A program made the position numbers and the translations under genes. The notes beneath the pieces are model-generated. The model was not told the DNA's origin. It made no database searches and saw nothing but the letters and a program-made list of their open reading frames with translations. A stretch of DNA of 11,498 bases from the NCBI GenBank assembly GCA_965649055.1, contig CBFGJG010000056.1, positions 1 through 11,498 of the forward strand. Direction: 5' to 3'. Source of the DNA: a candidate division WOR-3 bacterium (GTDB lineage: Bacteria > Hydrothermota > UBA3072 > B12-G15). This document shows positions 1-10,844 of this stretch, piece after piece (within the stretch, counting starts at the first letter, position 1; every line of letters begins with the position of its first letter).

Positions 1-211
1 ATCTCTCTCTCTCGAGAGGGAATTTTTATACTGATGAATGCATAATAAAGAATTCCAGAATAAAGATATATTTAACATTAAAGAGGATAAAGTTTATTTG
101 AAGAACCCTTTGCACCTTTGCCCAAAGGTGTGAAGGGGAGACATAAAAGGGCATAAAAGGGTTTGATTTTAGCAAAAGAAAAAAATTAAAAATTTAAATG
201 GAGGTAATTTT
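1..211 (+). repeat. Conserved cassette leader, copy 1 (5' part truncated by window edge)
   Basis: 1-152 is nearly identical to 4879-5032 (one substitution at 100, a 2-nt indel in the hairpin loop, one substitution after the hairpin). Similarity resumes at the A-rich tract and GGAGGT RBS (200-205) before ATG 212. Contains a local 10-bp tandem duplication CATAAAAGGG x2 (142-161). Confidence 0.95.
106..153 (+). promoter_or_regulatory. Conserved leader stem-loop (candidate cis-regulatory RNA element)
   Basis: CCCTTTGCACCTT pairs with AAGGTGTGAAGGG (13 bp, two G-U pairs on the + transcript). Arms are identical in all three leader copies. Loop GCCC is complementary to a downstream GGGC. Confidence 0.6.
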
Positions 212-385
212 ATGATTGAAATAGTATTTCCTGGGATAATAGTAGATGCCTTAATCGGAAGAGCGAAACCAGAATGTAGATGCGATTGCTGGGATAGAGG
301 TTCAAGAGAAGGGGAAAACTGTTCAGCAGGTTCATATTGTAGCGCTCGTATGGATATAGGACAATTTGATGCATTTGCAGTATAA
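212..385 (+). CDS. Cys-rich RiPP precursor peptide 1, 57 aa: MIEIVFPGIIVDALIGRAKPECRCDCWDRGSREGENCSAGSYCSARMDIGQFDAFAV
   Basis: Manual translation; not in the ORF track. GGAGGT RBS 6 nt before the ATG; 5 Cys including CxCxC; directly upstream of a rSAM/SPASM gene; same position relative to the leader as the other precursors. Confidence 0.9.
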   Translation: MIEIVFPGIIVDALIGRAKPECRCDCWDRGSREGENCSAGSYCSARMDIGQFDAFAV

Positions 386-389
386 CTTT

Positions 390-418
390 AGGGGGACGGA
401 AGCATCCGACCCCCTTTT
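390..418 (+). terminator. Hairpin plus short U-tract between precursor 1 and maturase (leaky terminator or mRNA stabiliser)
   Basis: GGGGG-A-CGGA / AGCA loop / TCCG-A-CCCCC followed by TTTT; very GC-rich against an AT-rich background. Confidence 0.75.
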
Positions 419-436
419 CAAAAAACTGGAGAAAAA

Positions 437-1858
437 ATGAATGTTCCATTTATAAAAAAGTTAAAAGTAGGAAATAATTATTATATCTATGATGTGAATT
501 CAAATAATATTCTAAGGTGTGATGAAAAAATATATAATATGATAGATACGAGTTACTGGAATACTAATGAGAAAATAATTGAGTTCCAAAAGAAAGGTAT
601 CTTTTCCCTAAAAAGACCTAAGAAAATAGTTCCTCCTTTTTCATTTGAAGAGATGAGAAAAATTTTAGAAAATGATTTAGTTGGTATATCAATGTTTATT
701 TCAGATAATTGCAATCTTAAATGTAAATACTGTTTTTTTTCAAATAACTATTATAAAACAATAAGTAGACCTTTAAAAAACAATCTAATGCATTTTCCAA
801 TGGCAAAAAAAATCCTTGATTTTTATCTAAATCATAGTGAGAATAGTGAAAGAAAGATTATAACTTTTTATGGTGGTGAGCCTTTGTTAAATTTTAAAGT
901 GATTAAAAAAAGTATTGAATACATTAAAGAAAAGTTAAAGGATTATACAAAGGAAATTATATTTTCATTTACCACAAATTTATACACTATTACAGATGAG
1001 GAAATTGAGTTTATTATAAATAATAATATCAGATTAGCAGTTTCACTTGATGGTCCTAAAGATATTCATAACAAATTTAGGCTTGATAAAACAGGAAAAG
1101 GAACATTTGATGTAGTAATGAAAAATTTAAATAAAATAAAAGATAAAAATATTGAATTCTTTAAAAAGAATGTTGGTTTTATAAGTGTGGCTACAGGAGG
1201 AACAGATATTGAAAAGGTTGCCAAATTTTTTACAGAATATTTTTCTGAGAATGTGAGTGTTAAAATTGGAGGGCTTTCATTCCTTCCTATGAATGAGACT
1301 TCAGAATTTTATGGTTTCAAATACTCACCAAACTACAAAAATGAGGAATTTTTATACAATGAATATAAAGACTGCAAGATAAAAGGTAAATCTCAAATTT
1401 CCCATAATGTTCTTTTTGATTTTTATGAAATAGAATTTTCAAAAATTCATAACAGATTTATGATACCTCTTGGGGAGATTTTTTATTCAAGTAGTGGTTG
1501 TACCCCAGGACAATTAAGACCATTAGTTGATGTAAATGGCTCAATATTTCTCTGTGAAAAGACTGGTTTTACATTTCATATAGGAGATGTTATAAATGGA
1601 TTTGATTATGAAAAGTGTTATCGCCTTATGGAAGAATTTGCATTGATCAGAGACGAGATTTGCAGGGATTGTTGGGCTTTGAGGTTTTGTGGAGTTTGTT
1701 ATCTTTATGGGATAGATGAGGAAGGAAAACTGAACAAAGGAAGATTGATAGAGATGTGTAAAAAAGAGAAAAGGGCATATGAAGTATTATTGAGAAGATA
1801 CATAGAGATTAGAGAAAAGAAAATGGATGCATTTGATAATTTAAGAAAAAATGAATAA
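437..1858 (+). CDS. Radical SAM/SPASM peptide maturase (CcpM-like Cys-rich peptide maturase), 473 aa
   Basis: CNLKCKYC (CxxxCxxC), YGGEPLL and SLDG motifs; C-terminal Cys cluster GCTPG...FLCEK...CRDCWALRFCGVC...C; N-terminal extension (YYIYDVNSNNIL) typical of an RRE-like domain; GGAG RBS at 428-431. Confidence 0.93.
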   Translation: MNVPFIKKLKVGNNYYIYDVNSNNILRCDEKIYNMIDTSYWNTNEKIIEFQKKGIFSLKRPKKIVPPFSFEEMRKILENDLVGISMFISDNCNLKCKYCFFSNNYYKTISRPLKNNLMHFPMAKKILDFYLNHSENSERKIITFYGGEPLLNFKVIKKSIEYIKEKLKDYTKEIIFSFTTNLYTITDEEIEFIINNNIRLAVSLDGPKDIHNKFRLDKTGKGTFDVVMKNLNKIKDKNIEFFKKNVGFISVATGGTDIEKVAKFFTEYFSENVSVKIGGLSFLPMNETSEFYGFKYSPNYKNEEFLYNEYKDCKIKGKSQISHNVLFDFYEIEFSKIHNRFMIPLGEIFYSSSGCTPGQLRPLVDVNGSIFLCEKTGFTFHIGDVINGFDYEKCYRLMEEFALIRDEICRDCWALRFCGVCYLYGIDEEGKLNKGRLIEMCKKEKRAYEVLLRRYIEIREKKMDAFDNLRKNE

Positions 1859-2939
1859 TAAATTTTTGTTATTTATCTTTATTTTATTTCTAAATTGTTC
1901 TAAATACATTGAAAAAACCATAAATTTTAAGATTGCGAAAGAAATAGAAAGAGAAAGCCACTTTGAAGGCTTATATTTTCCTCAGTATATGGGAGGGAAT
2001 GATAGTTTTTTAATAATTTCAGGCATTCAGAGTCCTTCTCTTATGATAAATATAGAAAGAGATGAGGTTATAGAAACATTAGCGATTGATGGAGAAGGAC
2101 CAGGTGAAAAGAAGAACTGGGGGGATGCTCATTTCTATGGGAATAAACTACTTTGCGCTTATCATAGTAAGTTGATGGTTTATGAAAAAGAGAAGAATGG
2201 TTATAAACTAAACAAAGAGCTCGCTCTTCCTTTTAATGGATGGTATTTTAGGATTTTAAATGATACTTTATTAGTTTTTATGGTGATTGATAGATATGAA
2301 AATTTGTTTGTATTATTTAATTGGGATAATGGGAAGGTTCTATTAGAGTTTGGGGATGCACTTGTCTATCCTCAAAGAAGATGGAGACAAAAATTATTAC
2401 CTGATTTTCCTTATTATTTTTGTGTATATGATAGTTTTTTAATAGTATATGATTATTTTGTAAACAAATTTATTGTATATGACATTTTTAGCAAAAAAAA
2501 GATGATAATTTCTTGTCGTTCTATTAAGTATTGGAAAACTCCAAAAGTTAAATTTGATAAAAAACTACATAGATTTGTTACTCAGTGTCCCAAAGTAAAA
2601 ATAGCAACGAATGGGAAATATTTGTTTATAATGTTTGAAAAAGCTTGGTTATACAATTGGTCAATTTATAATAATAAGAAGATTAAGAATATGAGCCAAA
2701 AAGAAAAAGCAGATTTATATTCATCTTTATTTTATTATTTTATAGATGTTTATTTATTAGAAAATTATAAATATGTTGGGAGTATTTATCCATTCAACTC
2801 AAGCATCTTATTTAATGAAGATAAAAATATTCTTTATGAACCTGAATTGTTAATTGTTAATAAAGATAAAATAATAATTTTCCTTACTGATAATTGCAAA
2901 TTCAAAGTTAAATTACTACATATAAAAATTGACCTCTAA
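1851..2939 (+). CDS. Putative lipoprotein, 6-bladed beta-propeller-like, 362 aa
   Basis: N-terminus MNNK + hydrophobic stretch + FLNC (lipobox-like Cys16); GEGPGE motif typical of 6-bladed beta-propeller proteins; beta-strand-rich pattern; overlaps the upstream stop (translational coupling). Confidence 0.65.
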   Translation: MNNKFLLFIFILFLNCSKYIEKTINFKIAKEIERESHFEGLYFPQYMGGNDSFLIISGIQSPSLMINIERDEVIETLAIDGEGPGEKKNWGDAHFYGNKLLCAYHSKLMVYEKEKNGYKLNKELALPFNGWYFRILNDTLLVFMVIDRYENLFVLFNWDNGKVLLEFGDALVYPQRRWRQKLLPDFPYYFCVYDSFLIVYDYFVNKFIVYDIFSKKKMIISCRSIKYWKTPKVKFDKKLHRFVTQCPKVKIATNGKYLFIMFEKAWLYNWSIYNNKKIKNMSQKEKADLYSSLFYYFIDVYLLENYKYVGSIYPFNSSILFNEDKNILYEPELLIVNKDKIIIFLTDNCKFKVKLLHIKIDL

Positions 2940-4578
2940 TCCCTTTCTCCGTTTTCTTAGATTTCTTTCACCTTATTGGAGAAAGGGATTATTAGCATTT
3001 TTCTTTATGCTTGTTTCTATTCTCTTACAACTTCCAATGCCTTTCTTAACAAGATATATTCTTGATGATGTTATAAGGATGAGGAGTTTTAAGGTTCTTA
3101 ATATAATAGGGTTTTCTCTTATAGGTGTAATTATTATTCAAGGTATATCATTTTTTGTTGAAAGATATTTGCTTTCAACATTCAGGGCAAAGGTCTTGTT
3201 TGATTTGAAGGTTACATTATTAGATAAGATAGAGAGATTAAAATTATCATATTTTCATAATAAAGAGACAGGTTATCTTATGAGCAGGATTCAAGATGAT
3301 ACAAATCAGGTTCAGGGACTTCTTGCAGATACATTTATCTCATTTGTTCAAAATTTTCTCACATTCATAGTTGGGATATGTGCGACATTTTATTTACACT
3401 ATAAACTTGCAATAATATGTCTTTCAATATTGCCTTTATATGCTTTAACAACATATATATTTAATAAGAGGATAAGGGATTTGAGTTATGAATTAAGGGA
3501 GGCATTTGCGAAGGTATCAAAGGATTTACAGGAGTTGTTGTCAGGTATAATGATAATTAAGGCATTTACAGGAGAAAGATATGGGACATTAAGATTTATA
3601 AGGAGTTTGAGAGAAGGGATAAGGAAGACAGTTAAACTTGATATTACAGCAACTATATTTAATATTTTTTCAAATGTTATCTCATCAACAGGTCCAATAA
3701 TTTTGATATGGTATGGATGTTATGAGATAATGAAAGGGAGATTAACGATAGGCACACTTGTGGCGTTTAATTCATTTATCAGGTATCTATTTGCTCCCAC
3801 GCAAGCATTTATGCAGATGAATATTTCTATTCAGCAATCAATAGTTTCAATAAGGAGGATATTTGAGATAATGGATGAGGAGGAGGAAAGAGATAGAGGA
3901 ATAAAGATTGAAAGGATAGAAGGTAAAATTGAGTTTAAAAATGTTTATTTTTCTTATGATGGTATGAATGATATATTAAAGAACTTTTCATTGTTGATAT
4001 TTCCGGGTGAGAAGATAGGGGTAGTGGGAGAGAGTGGGATTGGTAAATCAACAATAGCAGGGTTAATTTTAAGGTTTTATGAACATAGGGAAGGAAAGAT
4101 TATGATAGATGGGATAGATATAAGGGATATTAATTTGAAATCATTGAGGGAAAGTATAAGTTATGTATCACAGGATATATTTTTGTTTTCAGATACGATA
4201 AGGGAGAATATAAGATTAGGTAAGAGAAATGCAACAGATATTGAGATAATAGAGGCTGCAAGGATATCAGGAGTTATGGATTTTGTGAAAAAGAAAGGGG
4301 GAGGTCTTGATACGAAGATAGGTGAAAGGGGGATAAGGCTTTCAGGTGGTGAGAGGCAGAGGATAGCGATAGCGAGGGCAGTATTAAAGAATGCACCTAT
4401 TGTGATACTTGATGAGGCAACGAGTAATCTTGATATAAAAAATGAGAAGAAGATAATAAGGCTTGCAATGGATATATTTAGGGGAAAGACGATGATAATT
4501 ATAACGCATAGAAAAACTCCATTAAATATGCTTGATAGGATAATAAAGATAGAAAATGGTAGTGCAAAAGAATTGTGA
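2929..4578 (+). CDS. ABC exporter, fused permease/ATPase (MdlB/MsbA-type) without a C39 peptidase domain, 549 aa
   Basis: N-terminal TM helices; Walker A GESGIGKST, Q-loop YVSQD, signature LSGGE, Walker B VILDE, H-loop ITHR. The TTG start is supported by alignment with the ATG of the remnant copy at 10699. Confidence 0.95.
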   Translation: MTSNPFLRFLRFLSPYWRKGLLAFFFMLVSILLQLPMPFLTRYILDDVIRMRSFKVLNIIGFSLIGVIIIQGISFFVERYLLSTFRAKVLFDLKVTLLDKIERLKLSYFHNKETGYLMSRIQDDTNQVQGLLADTFISFVQNFLTFIVGICATFYLHYKLAIICLSILPLYALTTYIFNKRIRDLSYELREAFAKVSKDLQELLSGIMIIKAFTGERYGTLRFIRSLREGIRKTVKLDITATIFNIFSNVISSTGPIILIWYGCYEIMKGRLTIGTLVAFNSFIRYLFAPTQAFMQMNISIQQSIVSIRRIFEIMDEEEERDRGIKIERIEGKIEFKNVYFSYDGMNDILKNFSLLIFPGEKIGVVGESGIGKSTIAGLILRFYEHREGKIMIDGIDIRDINLKSLRESISYVSQDIFLFSDTIRENIRLGKRNATDIEIIEAARISGVMDFVKKKGGGLDTKIGERGIRLSGGERQRIAIARAVLKNAPIVILDEATSNLDIKNEKKIIRLAMDIFRGKTMIIITHRKTPLNMLDRIIKIENGSAKEL

Positions 4579-4807
4579 TTTTTCTTGATTATTTTTATTA
4601 TATTGATAAAATAATTATATGTTTTTAATAATTTCTTTAACACTTCAAGATATAGATTCTCTTGCTTTGAAAAATGCTTCTGAGATAATAAACCTAAGGG
4701 AAAATCTTTATTCGCTTCAAGATGAATATAGAACTCTTTTTTCTCACTTTTTACAACCATTGATAATTCTTTATTTTTAAATATAGAAAATTTTTCAAAA
4801 AAAATCC

Positions 4808-4836: not shown

Positions 4837-4983
4837 TAAAATATGCTTATGAGTTTCATCAAAAGCAGAAATAAATTAATCTCTCTCTCTCGAGAGGGAA
4901 TTTTTATACTGATGAATGCATAATAAAGAATTCCAGAATAAAGATATATTTAACATTAAAGAGGATAAAGTTTATTTAAAGAA

Positions 4984-5032
4984 CCCTTTGCACCTTCTTG
5001 CCCAAAGGTGTGAAGGGAAGACATAAAAGGGC
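4984..5032 (+). promoter_or_regulatory. Conserved leader stem-loop, copy 2
   Basis: CCCTTTGCACCTT-CTTGCCCA-AAGGTGTGAAGGG (4984-5017) with downstream GGGC (5029-5032). Confidence 0.6.
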
Positions 5033-5080: not shown

Positions 5081-5323
5081 ATGAAAAAAATAAAATGTAT
5101 TATTATACTATTAATGTTAATTGGAATTATATGTAATTTATTTCTGACTTCGTCAGCAAATGAAATTCCATCGTTAGGTGATGGATTTGAATATCCACCA
5201 TATGAAGATGGAGGTGGTGAAGGGAATGTTCCAACTGGAACTAGATATTGGAGTGGATTTCCAGATAATCCTATATGGAACTGTGATTGTTATAACGTTG
5301 GTAATACTTGTTGGTGTGGATAA
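5081..5323 (+). CDS. Secreted Cys-rich peptide, 80 aa (Sec-type signal peptide; C-terminal CDC...CWCG)
   Basis: GGAGGT RBS; MKKIK + hydrophobic core + SSA cleavage-like site; acidic Gly/Pro-rich linker; WNCDCYNVGNTCWCG C-terminus. Confidence 0.88.
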   Translation: MKKIKCIIILLMLIGIICNLFLTSSANEIPSLGDGFEYPPYEDGGGEGNVPTGTRYWSGFPDNPIWNCDCYNVGNTCWCG

Positions 5324-5360: not shown

Positions 5361-6362
5361 ATGATTTTGATTATTTTTTCACTTACTTTTGAAGAAATCT
5401 TTACACTTATAGATATTGATTCTCTGACTTCACAAATAATTTGCCATTATGGCCAAACACCAAGGATATATATATGGAAAGATAACTATATATTAGACTA
5501 TAATAATACTATGTGGTCAAAAGGTAAAGAAAAACTCATAGCAAATTTTGGGGATGGCCCTGATGAAATAACGAAAGGTTCTATGGTAAGACTTTATAAA
5601 GATTATTGTTACTTTCTTACTTCAAATGGTATTATGTCAATTTACAACTTAGAAAAAGATGAAATGGTGTTGAAAAGAATTATAAGAAATATTGGTATAA
5701 TTTTTGATTTTACCCTTGATTCAAGAGGGAACATTTTTATTTTTAGGCATAAGTCCTTATTCAGAGGTGGAAAACCTTGGTATGGTATTCAAAGGTTGAA
5801 GCCGGATGGGACACCTGAAAATAAAAATTTTCTTGAATTAGATGAGGAATACTTTGAATGGGTATTACAAATTGGGACTACAAGGGGGATGATTGAGATA
5901 CTTAATGATACATTATATTTTATAGAACCTCATAAACCTATTTTTTATAAATTTACTACAGATGGGAAATTGATAAAAAAATGTAAACTCAAAATTGAAA
6001 GATTTATTCCGCCAAAAGAAAAGTTTAAACCTCAAAGAATAGTTACAAATGATGAATGGTTTAAAAAAACTATAGAATGGGGAGAGACTTGGACACCACC
6101 TTTGAGGCTACTAAAGATACCACCTAAATATCTTCTAATATTTTATTTTGATAAAGGTGCATATATTGAAAAACCTAATGGTTTTATTGTTCTAATAGAT
6201 ACAAACGGAGATATATTAGATGAGATTAATATTGATAAACAACCTATTGGAATAGATGATAATGGAATTATATATTTTGCATCACCAAAACAGATAAACA
6301 AGAATGGCACTATGAAGATATTTAAATACAAGTTGAACATTGAGACGGGAAAAAATAAATAA
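5361..6362 (+). CDS. 6-bladed beta-propeller-like protein, 333 aa
   Basis: FGDGPDE motif near the N-terminus; NHL/propeller-like blades (FDFTLDSRGNIFIF, FYKFTTDGKLIK, LIDTNGDIL, IGIDDNGIIYF); short hydrophobic N-terminus. Confidence 0.7.
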   Translation: MILIIFSLTFEEIFTLIDIDSLTSQIICHYGQTPRIYIWKDNYILDYNNTMWSKGKEKLIANFGDGPDEITKGSMVRLYKDYCYFLTSNGIMSIYNLEKDEMVLKRIIRNIGIIFDFTLDSRGNIFIFRHKSLFRGGKPWYGIQRLKPDGTPENKNFLELDEEYFEWVLQIGTTRGMIEILNDTLYFIEPHKPIFYKFTTDGKLIKKCKLKIERFIPPKEKFKPQRIVTNDEWFKKTIEWGETWTPPLRLLKIPPKYLLIFYFDKGAYIEKPNGFIVLIDTNGDILDEINIDKQPIGIDDNGIIYFASPKQINKNGTMKIFKYKLNIETGKNK

Positions 6363-6379: not shown

Positions 6380-6979
6380 ATGAGAGCATTACGTATGATA
6401 AAAAAGAATATAATTTCTGAATTTCTTTTTTATTTAGTTGTCATTGTAATAATATTTTTTCAAAGCAAAATGATTATTTCAAGTAAAATGGAAGTATCTT
6501 TTTATAAAGTTCTTCTTTCTAATGTTCCTTTGAAGGAATATTCAATTATGAAGGAATATTCAATTATTTTAAGAGATACACTTTCAAATGATTTTGAATT
6601 TAATAATTTATATGGGAAAGGGATTTGTCTTATCTCAACAATATCACCGAAGGATTGTGGTAGTTGTCTTGAAGATGAGATAGAGTTTTTGAAGTATTTA
6701 AGAAAGAATATACCTGCATTACAGGTAATAGTTTTAATAGAGCATTATTATGGTTCAAATAAAGAGATATCGCCATGGATTAAAGACTATGGGATAGAAT
6801 ATCCATATTATTTTGATGTTGGTGGTATAGAGGATAGATGTTCATTAAAGAGTAGTTTATCTTGGAATTTTATAGTTAAAGATGGGAAGATAATAACGAG
6901 TTTTCTTCCACCGAAGGGGAGAATGGAAAAGAAGATATGTTTAAATTTATTAAGGGAATATGTGAGGATGAAGATATAA
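6380..6979 (+). CDS. Membrane-anchored thioredoxin-fold (TlpA/redoxin-like) CxxC protein, ~199 aa; exact start uncertain
   Basis: N-terminal TM helix; beta strand then DCGSC then helix (LEDEIEFLKYL); later YGIEYPYYFD and FIVKDGKI segments typical of TlpA/AhpC-like folds. Confidence 0.7.
   Translation: MRALRMIKKNIISEFLFYLVVIVIIFFQSKMIISSKMEVSFYKVLLSNVPLKEYSIMKEYSIILRDTLSNDFEFNNLYGKGICLISTISPKDCGSCLEDEIEFLKYLRKNIPALQVIVLIEHYYGSNKEISPWIKDYGIEYPYYFDVGGIEDRCSLKSSLSWNFIVKDGKIITSFLPPKGRMEKKICLNLLREYVRMKI
6531..6566 (+). repeat. In-frame 18-bp tandem duplication
   Basis: TGAAGGAATATTCAATTA x2, encoding KEYSIM-KEYSII. Confidence 0.95.
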
Positions 6980-7061
6980 ATAAAAAAAATCCTTTACTGG
7001 ATTCTATTTTTTTTATCAAAAGCAGGAATAAAATAAACTCTATCGAAAGGGAATTTTTATA

Positions 7062-7090
7062 TTGATAAAAGGATAAAAGATATATATAAT
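7062..7090 (+). promoter_or_regulatory. Candidate sigma70 promoter TTGATA-17 nt-TATAAT unique to leader copy 3
   Basis: TTGATA 7062-7067, 17-nt spacer, perfect TATAAT 7085-7090. AT-rich context raises the chance-match rate. Confidence 0.55.
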
Positions 7091-7119
7091 TTTAAAGAGG
7101 ATAAAATTTATTTGAAGAA

Positions 7120-7167
7120 CCCTTTGCACCTTCTTGCCCAAAGGTGTGAAGGGAAGACATAGGGCAA
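7120..7167 (+). promoter_or_regulatory. Conserved leader stem-loop, copy 3
   Basis: Stem 7120-7153 identical to copy 2; loop TTGCCC complementary to GGGCAA at 7162-7167. Confidence 0.6.
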
Positions 7168-7201
7168 AATAAATGAAGATAAAACCTTAAAAGGAGGAAA
7201 A

Positions 7202-7354
7202 ATGATAAATATATTAAATTTGTTAGAGGGTAAAATAAAGCCAGTTTGTGGATGTGGTTGTCCCTGTTGGTGTGGTGGCGTTATTAATGATTATGCAAAT
7301 GGTTATATGGACGGTGCTTGTGACGCTGGGCTTGCCTCTAATGAAGCTGCATAA
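7202..7354 (+). CDS. Cys-rich RiPP precursor peptide 3, 50 aa: MINILNLLEGKIKPVCGCGCPCWCGGVINDYANGYMDGACDAGLASNEAA
   Basis: Manual translation; not in the ORF track. AAGGAGG RBS; CxCxCxCxC plus a sixth Cys; directly upstream of the second rSAM/SPASM gene. Confidence 0.92.
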   Translation: MINILNLLEGKIKPVCGCGCPCWCGGVINDYANGYMDGACDAGLASNEAA

Positions 7355-7432: not shown

Positions 7433-8878
7433 ATGAATGTTAAGAAATTTTTTATAAATAATAGGTTTTTCGTTTATGACAGAAATACTAATTTTATTTT
7501 AGAAGTAGATGAGAGGTTGTATAATATTCTTGATGAAAAAATAGGTTTTAATGAAAAAATAAAACGCAAAATCAAAAGAGACAGAAGTTTGAGCGAAACT
7601 ATAAAAAATATTGAAAATATACAAAATCAATATGGATGTTTCAGACCATTGGAACTAAAAGGATTTAAGTTTGACGAAAAAATGAAAAAAGAAAATATAA
7701 ACAGAGTGGTTCTCAATATAACGGAGGAATGTAATCTCAGATGTAAATATTGCACTTATTCAGGTTTATATAATGGTCATAGAGTTCATACAAATAAATT
7801 TATGGATTGGGCTATTGCTCAAAAAAGCATTGAGTTCTTTTTGAAACATTGTGATAATAAAGAAAAGCAAGTCTTAGGTTTCTATGGAGGTGAACCTTTA
7901 TTAAATTTTGAGATAATTGAGGCATCGGTGCGTTTTATTAAAAATAAAAATGTAAGAAATTTAAATTTTTCAATAACAACAAATGGAACCTTGCTGAATA
8001 AAAAAATTATTAATTTTTTTGTTGAAAATGACTTTCAGGTTTTTATAAGTCTTGATGGTCCTAAAGATATAAATGATATATATAGAGTTTTTCAAAATTA
8101 TAAAGGTTCTTTTGATATTGTATATAGAAATGCTTTATTTATAAAGAAATTATATCCTGAATACTACAATAAAAAGGTTGGGTTTTCTGTGGTTATTCAT
8201 CCGCCGTATAGATGCGAAGAATTTTATAAATTTTTTACAGAAAATCCATTAGTTAAAGATAACATTCATATTTTTTCTTTTGTGAATCCATTTGGAACAA
8301 CTTTTTATAATAATTTTACAAAGGAAGAAATTAATGAGTATCTCCCTTTCTGGAATAAGATTAGGGAAAAATTTGTAAAAATGATGGTGAAAGAAGAATA
8401 TAATGATGAGATAAAAATTCTGTTTGAACTTTTTGGAAAAAGTGTTTATCAAATACATTTAATGCCAAAAGGGATAATCAAAGAAAAATATTTACATCCT
8501 GGTGGAATATGTTATCCTGGTTTTTATAAAACATTTGTTGGAACCTCAGGAAAGATTTATCCGTGTGAAAAACTTGGATATGTTTTGGAGATAGGAGATA
8601 TATTTGAAGGGATAAATGTTAATATGGTTAATAATATTATTAATGAATTCATAAGTATAAAAGAAGAATTATGCAAAGAATGTTGGGCTGTAAGGTTATG
8701 TAATCCATGCTTTTTAAGTGCAATTGAAGGTAACAAATTTTCAGTTAAAAGAAAAAAAGAATTTTGCAATATGAATAAAAAAAATATTGAAAAGAATCTT
8801 GAAACATATATTATGATAATGATGGATAATAAAGATGCTTTTGATAGTGAAAAGTTTAAGGTAAGTTTTACTCAATGA
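7433..8878 (+). CDS. Radical SAM/SPASM peptide maturase (CcpM-like), 481 aa
   Basis: CNLRCKYC, YGGEPLL, TTNGTLL, SLDGP; C-terminal GICYPG...YPCEK...CKECWAVRLCNPC...C; RRE-like N-terminus (FFVYDRNTNFIL). Divergent paralogue of 437-1858. Confidence 0.93.
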   Translation: MNVKKFFINNRFFVYDRNTNFILEVDERLYNILDEKIGFNEKIKRKIKRDRSLSETIKNIENIQNQYGCFRPLELKGFKFDEKMKKENINRVVLNITEECNLRCKYCTYSGLYNGHRVHTNKFMDWAIAQKSIEFFLKHCDNKEKQVLGFYGGEPLLNFEIIEASVRFIKNKNVRNLNFSITTNGTLLNKKIINFFVENDFQVFISLDGPKDINDIYRVFQNYKGSFDIVYRNALFIKKLYPEYYNKKVGFSVVIHPPYRCEEFYKFFTENPLVKDNIHIFSFVNPFGTTFYNNFTKEEINEYLPFWNKIREKFVKMMVKEEYNDEIKILFELFGKSVYQIHLMPKGIIKEKYLHPGGICYPGFYKTFVGTSGKIYPCEKLGYVLEIGDIFEGINVNMVNNIINEFISIKEELCKECWAVRLCNPCFLSAIEGNKFSVKRKKEFCNMNKKNIEKNLETYIMIMMDNKDAFDSEKFKVSFTQ

Positions 8879-8885
8879 AGATATT

Positions 8886-9764
8886 ATGATTTTACTATTC
8901 ATATTAAGCAAAATGATCCTTAACGAGAAGTTCATAGGAGTTATAAGTGATATTGAAGGATTTAAATTTGTGAAAATTATAGATGAAAATTTTTATTTCT
9001 ATTCCAAAGAGATGTTAAAAGTATTAATTTATAATAAAAATTTATTTAAAATTGGAGAAATAGATTTTAAAGAAGGTGATTGTCCTGAATGTGTAAAAAG
9101 GAGATTTAATAACATATTTATAGATACAGAAAATATAATAGTCTGTTCACCATTTCAAAAGAAGATAGTTTTATATAATTCAAACGGAATATTTAAAAAA
9201 ATAATAAATACACAGAACCTTCCATATTTTGTATTAAAGGATAGAGAGAGGATAATGACATATGAAATTAAAGAGTATAAAAGTTTTATTGCTTTTTATG
9301 ATTTGAATGGAAAATTTCTTAATAATAAAGAAATACCCCAAACAGATTTTACAAAAAAATATAATGTCTATGAAATCCCATCAGCAATTTGTTTTGATAA
9401 TAGTAGATTATTTATACCTGAAAGCTACCGATTTGGAATTTGGGAATACATGATTGAAAAGGATATAATAAAAAGATTTATAAAAACAAGAGATTTCTTT
9501 AAAAATCCTATAATAAAGAAGAGGGGGAGCTCTACAGGAGTTATAATTTTATCAACTATCAATAATATTTTTATCTATGATTCATTAATTGTAATATATG
9601 CAATTGGAACAAAATGTGGAAATTTATTGCTGCTTTGTAATAAAAAAGGTGAAGAATTATTATTATTAAAAAAATTGAAATACGATGATATTATAACAGA
9701 TGGGAGAAATATTTATGCAATTAAGTCAGATACTATTTATAGCCTTTCTCTTCTCCAAAAGTAG
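8886..9764 (+). CDS. 6-bladed beta-propeller-like protein, 292 aa
   Basis: Short hydrophobic N-terminus; repeated blade motifs (IVLYNSNGIFKK, IAFYDLNGKFLN, LCNKKGEEL); EGDCPEC at the position of the GxGPxE motif. Confidence 0.6.
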   Translation: MILLFILSKMILNEKFIGVISDIEGFKFVKIIDENFYFYSKEMLKVLIYNKNLFKIGEIDFKEGDCPECVKRRFNNIFIDTENIIVCSPFQKKIVLYNSNGIFKKIINTQNLPYFVLKDRERIMTYEIKEYKSFIAFYDLNGKFLNNKEIPQTDFTKKYNVYEIPSAICFDNSRLFIPESYRFGIWEYMIEKDIIKRFIKTRDFFKNPIIKKRGSSTGVIILSTINNIFIYDSLIVIYAIGTKCGNLLLLCNKKGEELLLLKKLKYDDIITDGRNIYAIKSDTIYSLSLLQK

Positions 9765-10569
9765 TGCTAAATTAGGACTCCCATATGATATTGAGAAAAT
9801 TAATAATTTTTATGTTGTTCTTAATGTGGAAAAAAAATTACTATTTCTTAAAAGAGGTTTATTCTCATTTAAAGTGATAAAAGAAGTTGATTTGTCAAAT
9901 ACTATATCTTCACAATCATTTTTTTTAAAGGTTGATAGCATAGTATATCTGGTAACAGGATTTAAAAATACGGATTTTTATTCTATCAATTTTGACAGTT
10001 TGGAATATGTTAATTCCGTTCCTTATAAAGTTACTGGTGGAATTTCAACAGATGACTATATAATTTTATTTGGAAATTGGAAGGGTAAATTTATTCATTT
10101 CTATACAAAAAAATTTTTATATAAAAATTCATTTTTGGTTTCTTTTAAAATCATGGACAGGATTTATTCTTTTTATTCCTGTGATACAATTTATTTTACT
10201 TCACCTGAAAAATTGATTATCTATAAATTTATTGATACTATGCTATTGGATAGTATAATTATAGATAGTATGAATTGCATATTAAGTGTAAAATACGGAA
10301 ATAAAGATATAGTATTTAAGATTACTGGTTTTACAGGTCTTGTCTGGAGTAAGGAATTTAGTATAGTTCCTTCTTTTTTTAAATATCCTGATTCAATTTC
10401 TAATTTTCTTTTTGATAATAATAAGAGTATATTATCAAATTCCTATTTATTTTTTAAAGATAAAACAAAAAAGATTGGAGATGGGAGAATAACGATAAAA
10501 CAAGTAAATAAAATTTATTTTATTTTAAAAAACAAGAAAATTGAAGTTTTTAATTTTAGAAAATTATGA
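9715..10569 (+). CDS. Putative exported beta-rich (propeller-like) hypothetical protein; start probably ATG 9715 rather than 9700
   Basis: GGAG at 9703-9706 precedes ATG 9715; MQLSQILFIAFLFSKSSA resembles a signal peptide; blade-like FIHFYTKKFLYKNSF and DTIYFTSPEKLIIYKF, the latter resembling DTLYFIEPHKPIFYKF in 5361-6362. Confidence 0.55.
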   Translation: MQLSQILFIAFLFSKSSAKLGLPYDIEKINNFYVVLNVEKKLLFLKRGLFSFKVIKEVDLSNTISSQSFFLKVDSIVYLVTGFKNTDFYSINFDSLEYVNSVPYKVTGGISTDDYIILFGNWKGKFIHFYTKKFLYKNSFLVSFKIMDRIYSFYSCDTIYFTSPEKLIIYKFIDTMLLDSIIIDSMNCILSVKYGNKDIVFKITGFTGLVWSKEFSIVPSFFKYPDSISNFLFDNNKSILSNSYLFFKDKTKKIGDGRITIKQVNKIYFILKNKKIEVFNFRKL

Positions 10570-10706
10570 TAAAGATTTTAAATTTTAAAATGACAGATAT
10601 TAAACAAAATACTAAATGTGAATGTTTTTCTATTGGTTGTGAAAATAGTTCAGGGTATTTAGAAGGATATGCAATGGGTATGTATGCATTCTCTGGAAAT
10701 GAATAA
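10566..10706 (+). CDS. Second precursor-like peptide of cassette 3, 46 aa: MIKILNFKMTDIKQNTKCECFSIGCENSSGYLEGYAMGMYAFSGNE
   Basis: Manual translation. ATGA overlap with the upstream stop; shares MIxILN, IK, CxC, YxxGYxxG and NE with peptide 7202-7354. Confidence 0.75.
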   Translation: MIKILNFKMTDIKQNTKCECFSIGCENSSGYLEGYAMGMYAFSGNE

Positions 10707-10786
10707 TAATCTTCTTTTCCGTTTTTTTAGATTTTTTTCACCTTATTGGAGAAAGGATTATTAGCATTTTTCTTTATGCTTGTTTC
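10699..10786 (+). pseudogene. 5' remnant of the ABC exporter (frameshifted, rest deleted)
   Basis: Aligns with 2929-3017. MNNNLLFRFFRFFSPYWRK vs MTSNPFLRFLRFLSPYWRK; a 1-nt deletion (AAGGATT vs AAGGGATT) gives TAG at 10762-10764. Confidence 0.92.
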
Positions 10787-10794
10787 ATTTATAT

Positions 10795-10844
10795 CCATTG
10801 ATAATTCTATATTTCTTGAATATAAAAATTTTCAAAAAAAGTCC
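10795..10844 (+). repeat. Start of a fourth leader/promoter copy, cut by the IS
   Basis: CCATTGATAATTCT...AATAT...AAAATTTTCAAAAAAAGTCC matches 4757-4807; homology ends at the position of TTGACA. Confidence 0.8.

Follow-up and report, generated by a model that had tools for sequence, protein, structure and literature searches.

A short reading frame with five cysteines lies at positions 212..385 (forward strand) of an 11,498-nucleotide (nt) stretch of DNA from a candidate division WOR-3 bacterium of the Hydrothermota lineage (contig CBFGJG010000056.1 of assembly GCA_965649055.1), directly ahead of a gene for a radical S-adenosylmethionine (rSAM) enzyme with a SPASM domain. The whole stretch, called the window here, is the entire contig and belongs to a genome of 2.08 Mb with about 27% G+C and an estimated completeness of 93.8%. 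The locus raises the question of whether this frame is a gene at all and, if so, whether it encodes the precursor of a peptide made on the ribosome and modified after translation (RiPP) that is matured by the adjacent enzyme. This study found that the frame is very probably a real gene, and that its product, precursor 1, belongs by the sum of its features to a family of peptides with an M-I leader and a ladder of alternating cysteines. The explanation that best accounts for the whole, and that we regard as fairly probable, is that precursor 1 is translated, cross-linked by the adjacent maturase and exported.

Precursor gene 1 and its family

A preliminary description, made from the sequence alone, had reported an open reading frame (ORF) of 57 residues with a strong ribosome-binding site and a CRCDC...C...C arrangement. 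The frame is present as described: it starts at the ATG at 212, with no earlier start codon in the same frame, and a Shine-Dalgarno sequence, GGAGG (200..204, forward strand), can be read directly 7 nt 5' of this ATG. The product, MIEIVFPGIIVDALIGRAKPECRCDCWDRGSREGENCSAGSYCSARMDIGQFDAFAV, carries MIEIVFPG at its extreme N-terminus, followed by a linker, the ladder C22-x-C24-x-C26 and a tail of 14 residues; C37 and C43 complete the five cysteines of the core.

The same description considered the gene to be hidden by a spurious antisense ORF. A frame of 79 codons indeed exists on the reverse strand (210..449), overlying the precursor gene, the hairpin that follows it and the start of the maturase gene. 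Being the longer of the two, it might be taken for the real gene and the 57-codon frame merely for its shadow, but codon usage speaks strongly against this. With codon frequencies taken from 899 long ORFs of this genome (excluding contig C56), the antisense frame scores -0.419 bits per codon, below all 3000 sampled windows of real genes. The forward frame scores +0.280 bits per codon, against 0.371 +/- 0.142 for real windows of 57 codons, and only 0.5% of antisense windows (n = 3000) reach this value. Moreover, the antisense frame has no Shine-Dalgarno sequence 5' of its ATG, runs across the hairpin into the maturase start, and its product is absent from the public protein collection in which the exact 57-residue protein (source NCBI) is already present. 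Purines make up 59% of the forward strand at this gene, which leaves few stop codons on the opposite strand; another antisense ORF, of 199 codons and within the ABC (ATP-binding cassette) exporter gene, has the same cause. That the antisense frame is the gene is thus highly improbable, whereas codon usage, position and family membership make ORF 212-385 very probably a real one. The earlier statement was right in regarding the antisense ORF as spurious; the precursor gene is hidden only from a view restricted to the longest ORFs, since public gene calls include it.

The position of the gene is shared by many relatives of the enzyme. Maturase homologues (E <= 1e-30) were found in 26 of the 272 genomes of the phylum, with identities of 27-36%; the nearest homologue of the adjacent enzyme, maturase 1, is P0007 with 50% identity. 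Of the 27 foreign loci of the phylum, at least 15 have a small same-strand ORF with a cysteine ladder adjoining the maturase gene, 14 of them directly upstream and one downstream, and four more of the 27 end at a contig edge less than 210 nt upstream of the maturase. The preliminary description had named a lack of conservation beside close maturase homologues as grounds for giving up its proposal, which these loci leave standing.

The family peptides (alignment A2) begin with M-I-x-x-[IV], often followed by W-G, and continue with a variable linker, a CxCxC(xC...) ladder and a tail. A profile of A2 retrieved 25 proteins at E <= 1e-3 from 1.84 billion representatives, of which about 10 are small peptides outside the seed set and one is a protein of 497 residues. 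Scanning with the maturase alignment yielded 56 more loci in named genomes. Those of Bacillota combine MKKLGKK..VEAY leaders (K-type) with cysteine ladders, and leaders of the MI type occur in Aminicenantes and other Acidobacteriota, Gemmatimonadota, Krumholzibacteriia, Deferrimicrobium and a few metagenome-assembled genomes (MAGs) of Clostridia. N-termini closely resembling that of precursor 1 include MIEEIFPG (L065), MIREVFEG (L016), MKIVFDG (L107) and MILDIFNDG (L018). The peptide of locus L077 is a truncated K-type peptide, despite its automatic MI label. Many related loci contain two or three tandem precursor genes per maturase, namely L051 (G116:C30; 4708-4833, 6557-6628), L073, L067, L072, L082, L086 and L106.

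The window itself encodes two paralogues, precursor 3 (50 residues; 7202..7354, forward strand), ahead of a second maturase gene (maturase 2, 7433-8878), and precursor 4 (46 residues; 10566..10706, forward strand), of the same family. The strings reported earlier as common to precursors 1 and 3 were read correctly (GRAKPECRCDC against GKIKPVCGCGC, MIEI against MINI), and the MIxI start and the CxCxC ladder recur as real motifs of the wider family, both in A2 and in the cross-phylum loci. The further suggestion that G[RK]xKP is a common boundary motif does not hold for the family as a whole: the linker columns of A2 vary, and only a basic residue two to four positions before the first cysteine recurs in many peptides.

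Precursor 1 fits the family as delimited in this study, by a start of M-[IV]-x-x-[IVLM], a cysteine ladder 10-25 residues further on and a CcpM-like maturase gene directly downstream. Its membership was evaluated against all 15,219 small ORFs of its genome. The pattern 'M[IV], 10-25 residues, CxCxC', derived from foreign members, fits just two of them, precursors 1 and 3, both located directly ahead of the two maturase genes of the window. A first profile, built from 19 foreign seeds, ranks precursors 3 and 4 first and second (E 3.1e-5 and 7.8e-5), and a second one, from 26 foreign seeds, ranks precursors 3, 4 and 1 first, second and third (E 4.9e-5, 0.0047 and 0.011), the next ORF being at E 0.88. 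The seven added seeds are foreign peptides encoded upstream of maturases in other phyla, which were picked by position and ladder, irrespective of likeness to precursor 1.

Several results weigh against this membership. In the first profile test precursor 1 took only rank 185 (1.8 bits, E 230), and the seven seeds were added after that test. No homologue beyond itself was found in 5.8 billion clustered proteins, searches of 40 related genomes and of the rest of its own gave nothing at E < 0.02, and pairwise BLASTP is not significant either with precursor 3 (E 25) or with the nearest relative, P0139 (E 0.45). Finally, the nearest neighbours of maturase 1 on the maturase tree (L096 and L080) are accompanied by peptides with CxxxC spacing and no ladder. 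The case for precursor 1 as a divergent member of the family is made jointly by its position, its leader motif, the ladder and the result of the broader profile.

In the tree itself (FastTree, 80 maturases), all 26 enzymes associated with K-type leaders fall into one subtree of 41-43 rows with Shimodaira-Hasegawa-like support of 88-91, which is not decisive, and this subtree contains neither maturase of the window. Leader type is clustered on the tree (10 and 6 changes versus 22 in shuffles, none of 500 shuffles being as low), a distribution that kinship alone could cause. Maturase 2 joins a clade with peptides of the form CVCVC.SP.C...GY.DG, like precursors 3 and 4 (support 89), and maturase 1 forms a long branch (1.19) joined to another long branch, the deep branches of this tree being weak. 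The family to which precursor 1 is assigned can be described as a sister branch, uncurated and marked by MI leaders, of the cysteine-ladder peptides of CcpM/CLI_3235.

Operon, maturase and proposed mechanism

From position 212 onward the genes follow one another in the order precursor 1, hairpin, rSAM/SPASM maturase, lipoprotein and peptidase-less ABC exporter. That precursor 1 opens an operon of this composition is part of the same explanation as its translation and cross-linking, and shares with them, as one joint claim, our moderate confidence.

The stop codon of precursor 1 lies 51 nt ahead of the ATG of maturase 1, which is preceded by GGAG. In the interval there is a GC-rich hairpin, GGGGGACGGA..TCCGACCCCC, followed by UUUU (391..419, forward strand); its stem-loop at 391-414 has dG -18.6 and z -2.9, and it is probably a partial terminator or a stabiliser of the transcript. 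A terminator scan of the window, which did not list the hairpin at 391-414, points the other way, there being only four U behind it. In 60-nt windows after the peptide stop, compared with mononucleotide shuffles, a comparable hairpin (z <= -3.5) was found in 9 of 15 foreign loci, and also after precursors 1 and 3, the sequences being unrelated from locus to locus. Attenuating or stabilising hairpins are common behind RiPP structural genes, and a conserved hairpin in this position would fit such a role.

Maturase 1 (437..1858, forward strand) has 473 residues and matches the radical SAM family PF04055 with 9.7e-20. The CX3CX2C motif, formed by C92, C96 and C99, is invariant among 44 aligned sequences, as are the SPASM cysteines C355, C373, C409, C412, C421 and C441, with C418 nearly so. 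Its N-terminal domain is predicted by modelling to recognise the leader; no Pfam match to PqqD or another RiPP recognition element (RRE) was obtained for the enzyme. Among NCBIfam models maturase 1 scores highest with CcpM (TIGR04068), at 296.5 bits against a cut-off of 500 bits, followed by RumMC, the lachnocin maturase, PapB, the GG-Bacteroidales rSAM maturase (TIGR04148), QhpD, the nif11 maturase, the ScfB-related family NF040492 and the SCIFF maturase (TIGR03974). The earlier view that a gene of precursor type stands beside its own rSAM/SPASM maturase is supported by these data.

For a model of the complex, the full maturase was entered with an alignment of 44 sequences and the precursor with one of 18, in three runs and with three controls. 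All three runs gave an interface score (ipSAE) of 0.79, compared with 0.01 for the best control. Among complexes of solved structure, 116 of 157 attain the mark applied to this score, as do 2 of 215 mismatched pairs. At least 36% of the contacts are common to the runs. Residues 1-11 of the precursor are placed on the N-terminal domain of the maturase (residues 16, 23-29, 32, 46-50 and 55), where several of the contacting positions, such as Y16 and N23, are nearly invariant, and residues 23-26 come near maturase residues 338-343, 353, C355, 419 and C421. Two points count against too confident a reading of the model. The local confidence (pLDDT) of the partner is only 39-42, so that the peptide's own fold is uncertain; and, as structures of rSAM enzymes with bound leaders have been solved, the pass may reflect likeness to those complexes. 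Within these limits the model supports binding of the leader to the N-terminal domain.

The gene of a predicted lipoprotein of 362 residues (1851..2939, forward strand) overlaps the maturase gene by 8 nt and the ABC gene by 11 nt, and is probably co-translated for this reason. The protein has no Pfam or NCBIfam match and no sequence homologue. A language-model look-up gives a lead to a six-bladed beta-propeller (score 0.94), and the single-sequence AlphaFold model has a mean pLDDT of only 48.9.

The ABC exporter (2929..4578, forward strand; 549 residues) is an MsbA-like half transporter. Because its alignment to peptidase-bearing ABC families begins only at profile positions 146-172, it has no C39 peptidase domain. 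This agrees with the earlier observation that the leader lacks a double-glycine site, and no protease gene was found in the window. An ABC homologue with 27-42% identity occurs in 7 of 10 extended foreign loci, and in four of them it follows the maturase within 50-115 nt.

Thioether cross-linking combined with export is the mechanism best supported by these features. The MIEIVFPG N-terminus, a variant of the M-I-x-x-[IV] motif, would bind in the form of a beta-strand to the recognition domain at the N-terminus of the maturase and thereby feed the alternating-cysteine core (C22, C24 and C26, perhaps also C37 and C43) into the active site. There the three-cluster enzyme would attach the sulfur of cysteines to carbon atoms in residues of the C-terminal half, in links of the sacti- or ranthipeptide type. 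The likely product would be a compact nested hairpin leaving the cell via the peptidase-less exporter, and the RNA hairpin behind the stop codon would hold precursor transcripts above those of the enzymes. We infer the thioether chemistry, the topology and the export, as well as a bacteriocin-like role of the product.

Two considerations detract from the chemical part of this mechanism: SPASM enzymes also make C-C and C-O links, oxidise cysteine and epimerise residues, and the CcpM clade has no member with a solved product in the searchable literature. Gene and pairing might therefore be real and the chemistry of another kind (conversion of cysteine of the formylglycine type, C-C or C-O links, or epimerisation), or else the free ladder might mainly bind metal. 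We consider this possible, with a probability well below that of thioether formation. It finds some backing in the weaker matches of maturase 1, which include anaerobic sulfatase maturases and cyclophane-forming enzymes. Also in its favour, one study reports that rSAM chemistry is poorly predicted by full-length similarity, as in the case of StsB and MftC (PMC10288494), and the links of SacP23, a peptide of the CcpM clade, are said to 'remain to be elucidated' (PMC10731318). Against it stand the stronger matches, among them RumMC, PapB, QhpD and the SCIFF maturase, which form thioethers and act on cysteine-rich peptides. In addition, StsA and CrpA, the substrates of two studied pairs of an rSAM enzyme and a cysteine-rich peptide, are both reported to carry thioethers (PMC10288494; PMC13692751).

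Alternatively, precursor 1 could be a paralogue that is decaying or has been orphaned, perhaps still transcribed and no longer a good substrate, the working substrates being precursors 3 and 4. Precursor 1 is the most divergent of the three, having no homologue, ranking 185th with the first profile and below both paralogues with the second. The long branch of maturase 1 could be read in the same way, and decay is seen elsewhere in the island in the form of an exporter remnant and a transposase fragment, described below. However, the ribosome-binding site, ORF and hairpin of precursor 1 are intact, its promoter element is 97-99% identical to a second copy, its codon usage resembles that of real genes, maturase 1 retains every cluster ligand, and the complex model is confident as regards the predicted leader contact. 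Decay is on balance improbable, and a translated and cross-linked precursor 1 is the preferred reading.

Upstream element, paralogues and neighbouring genes

Precursor 1 is preceded by an element (1..170, forward strand) that comprises the promoter region and a 5' hairpin at about 106-138 (dG -20.9, z -2.8). The element, some 150 nt long, ends in this conserved hairpin and is repeated at 4879-5032 (97-99% identity), before the gene of an 80-residue peptide, with a further copy ahead of precursor 3 at 7015-7168 (64-79%). On another contig, a fourth copy (G000:C17:242-380, reverse strand), in which the letters of the stem differ and the pairing is kept, precedes an unrelated gene whose product starts with MFLMFVFMVGYNVREHP and is cut by the contig end. 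All three genes of the window that carry the element have a strong hairpin behind them (z -2.9, -7.3 and -4.4). The shared element may mark a small regulon. The contig begins exactly at this element, a repeat that probably broke the assembly. Across the whole window Rfam returned a single microRNA match at chance level, and the repeated element matches none of its families.

The two DNA runs listed as containing part of the window are labelled as hot-springs metagenome; no RNA run was listed for it, and one that was compared gave only matches of 18-21 nt, within long contigs belonging to other organisms. In one low-depth metagenome contig of 383 nt (run X2), the upstream element together with 33 nt from the beginning of precursor 1 is matched, followed by the start of the maturase gene (window 107-499), with 190 other letters between these matches in place of 201. 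It may represent a related strain in which the leader is kept and the core differs.

The 80-residue peptide (5081-5323) has a signal-like segment at its N-terminus, NCDCYNVGNTCWCG at its C-terminus and no maturase of its own, and it does not belong to the MI family (rank 395 with the 26-seed profile). Its gene is followed by those of a 333-residue protein (5361-6362) and a membrane-anchored protein of 199 residues (6380-6979). The latter has no Pfam match, and its CGSC motif hints at a thiol-disulfide oxidoreductase.

Further downstream, maturase 2 is 32-35% identical to maturase 1 and scores 338.3 bits with CcpM. In a variant of precursor 4 from another assembly (P0005), 5 of 46 residues are changed: the linker that separates the MIKILNF start from the first cysteine has four of the changes and the tail has one, with the ladder unchanged. 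After precursor 4, in the region 10707-10840, about 80 nt repeat the 5' end of the ABC gene (2937-3017) with 88-97% identity, and directly behind them comes a sequence 75% like 4750-4802, a region downstream of the same gene. The region 10707-10840 is what is left of a second exporter gene after deletion of its body. A fragment of an ISNCY-type transposase occupies the end of the contig (10902-11498, reverse strand).

The 362- and 333-residue proteins, together with two others of 292 and 289 residues (8886-9764 and 9700-10569), form a set of four beta-rich proteins with no family match. The last two ORFs overlap by 65 nt, and the second may start later. Look-up with a language model suggests six-bladed beta-propeller lipoproteins of Bacteroidota (DUF5128/BF3164); the homologue search, made for one of the four, the 362-residue lipoprotein, found none, and tblastn of all four and the 199-residue protein against the 10 extended foreign loci gave no match. 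In a Clostridia MAG the gene immediately ahead of a CcpM-like maturase (L092, 378-1175) encodes a 265-residue protein with NHL/beta-propeller-like repeats. Propeller proteins may thus accompany CcpM-like maturases beyond this genome.

Relation to known systems

How novel is this locus? The boldest answer would be that the MI-leader peptides form a separate RiPP class spread over several phyla. Recognition in that class would rely on the first seven residues or so, the leader might stay on as no protease travels with the genes, and the ladder would be stapled in a topology not seen so far. In this genome it would also have a one-element regulon, in which a single promoter/5'-hairpin element of 150 nt drives the genes of three peptides, namely precursor 1, precursor 3 and the 80-residue peptide, and one unrelated gene. 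We regard this as doubtful. No paper on MI-leader peptides was found in the literature searched, subscription journals and supplements lying outside the search. The interpretation given in the preliminary description is right in kind, but its term 'new RiPP' overstated the novelty of what is a divergent offshoot of a kind already catalogued, CcpM/CLI_3235; the find is sound and not surprising. Three paralogous substrates within 11 kb nevertheless make the locus convenient for co-expression, and for finding out how one enzyme family reads alternating cysteines.

Among systems with a known product, StsA of Streptomyces sparsogenes (CxCxCx4GxGxG) contains three Cys-Gly sactionines in a hairpin, according to the available part of its description (PMC10288494). 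By analogy, the CxCxC ladder of precursor 1 could serve as a similar set of donors, the working model being one of nested links from cysteines to acceptors in a hairpin. In contrast to StsA, the x4-GxGxG acceptor motif is absent and the ladder is followed by WDRGSREGEN; moreover, StsB is MftC-like and works with a separate RRE protein. The StsA model NF045558 remained unmatched, and MftC is not among the 25 best families for maturase 1.

The available account of CrpC describes an enzyme that puts ranthionines on a cysteine-rich protein (PMC13692751). Maturase 1 resembles this enzyme, as well as PapB, CteB/SCIFF, QhpD and RumMC, in its layout of a predicted N-terminal recognition domain, a radical SAM core and a SPASM domain with two auxiliary clusters, and in the cysteine-rich nature of the substrates. 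It differs from this group in its scores, which lie far under the cut-off of each family (128-193 bits against 340-720), and in the unrelated precursors.

The GG-Bacteroidales rSAM system (TIGR04148/04149/04150) shares with the window a core with a cysteine ladder and hosts of the Fibrobacterota-Chlorobiota-Bacteroidota (FCB) type, and the maturase match is moderate (158 and 194 bits). Unlike that system, the window has no GG leader, pseudo-rSAM partner or peptidase-ABC, and TIGR04149 matched one of 18 family peptides, at E 0.31. Systems of the double-glycine/C39 type differ likewise, as there is no GG in residues 1-21 of precursor 1 and the ABC protein of 549 residues has no peptidase domain.

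The closest known system is CcpM/CLI_3235 of Bacillota, which consists of the TIGR04068 maturase, the TIGR04065 precursor and the accessory proteins TIGR04066 and TIGR04069. A cluster of this type in Paenibacillus polymyxa, that of SacP23, yielded a product active against methicillin-resistant Staphylococcus aureus, with its links unsolved in the accessible text (PMC10731318), and CcpM appears merely as an annotated group in what is available of a mapping paper (PMC9062424).

The leader in the window follows M-I-x-x-[IV] from residue 1, unlike the MKKLGKK..VEAY leaders of CLI_3235 precursors, and both maturases of the window stay under the 500-bit cut-off of TIGR04068. No NCBIfam model matches precursor 1 at E <= 0.1. 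A match to TIGR04065, which had been proposed earlier as a check, was negative: none of 18 MI-type family peptides matched at E <= 1 (cut-off 26 bits), whereas all six Clostridial peptides beside CcpM did so as a positive control, five of them above the cut-off. Since the NCBIfam precursor model misses this branch, automatic RiPP mining in phyla other than Bacillota under-counts such clusters. TIGR04066 and TIGR04069 found no match among the proteins of the window. In the genome as a whole, TIGR04069 gave only a 19-bit match on another contig, under its cut-off, and TIGR04066 gave none, in a search that is weak, as it also found none in 14 control genomes.

On the side of likeness, CcpM is the best NCBIfam match of both window maturases, which are 27-34% identical to the maturases of the 56-locus scan. 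Like the CLI_3235 precursors, the peptides have a short leader, at once an alternating cysteine ladder and a tail rich in Gly, Ser and Tyr; as in Clostridial CcpM loci, the gene of the ladder peptide is directly upstream of the maturase, and an ABC exporter is present within the cluster. The locus adds to the CcpM-type clade a thermal-spring branch with very short leaders and compact three-gene cores of precursor, maturase and exporter.

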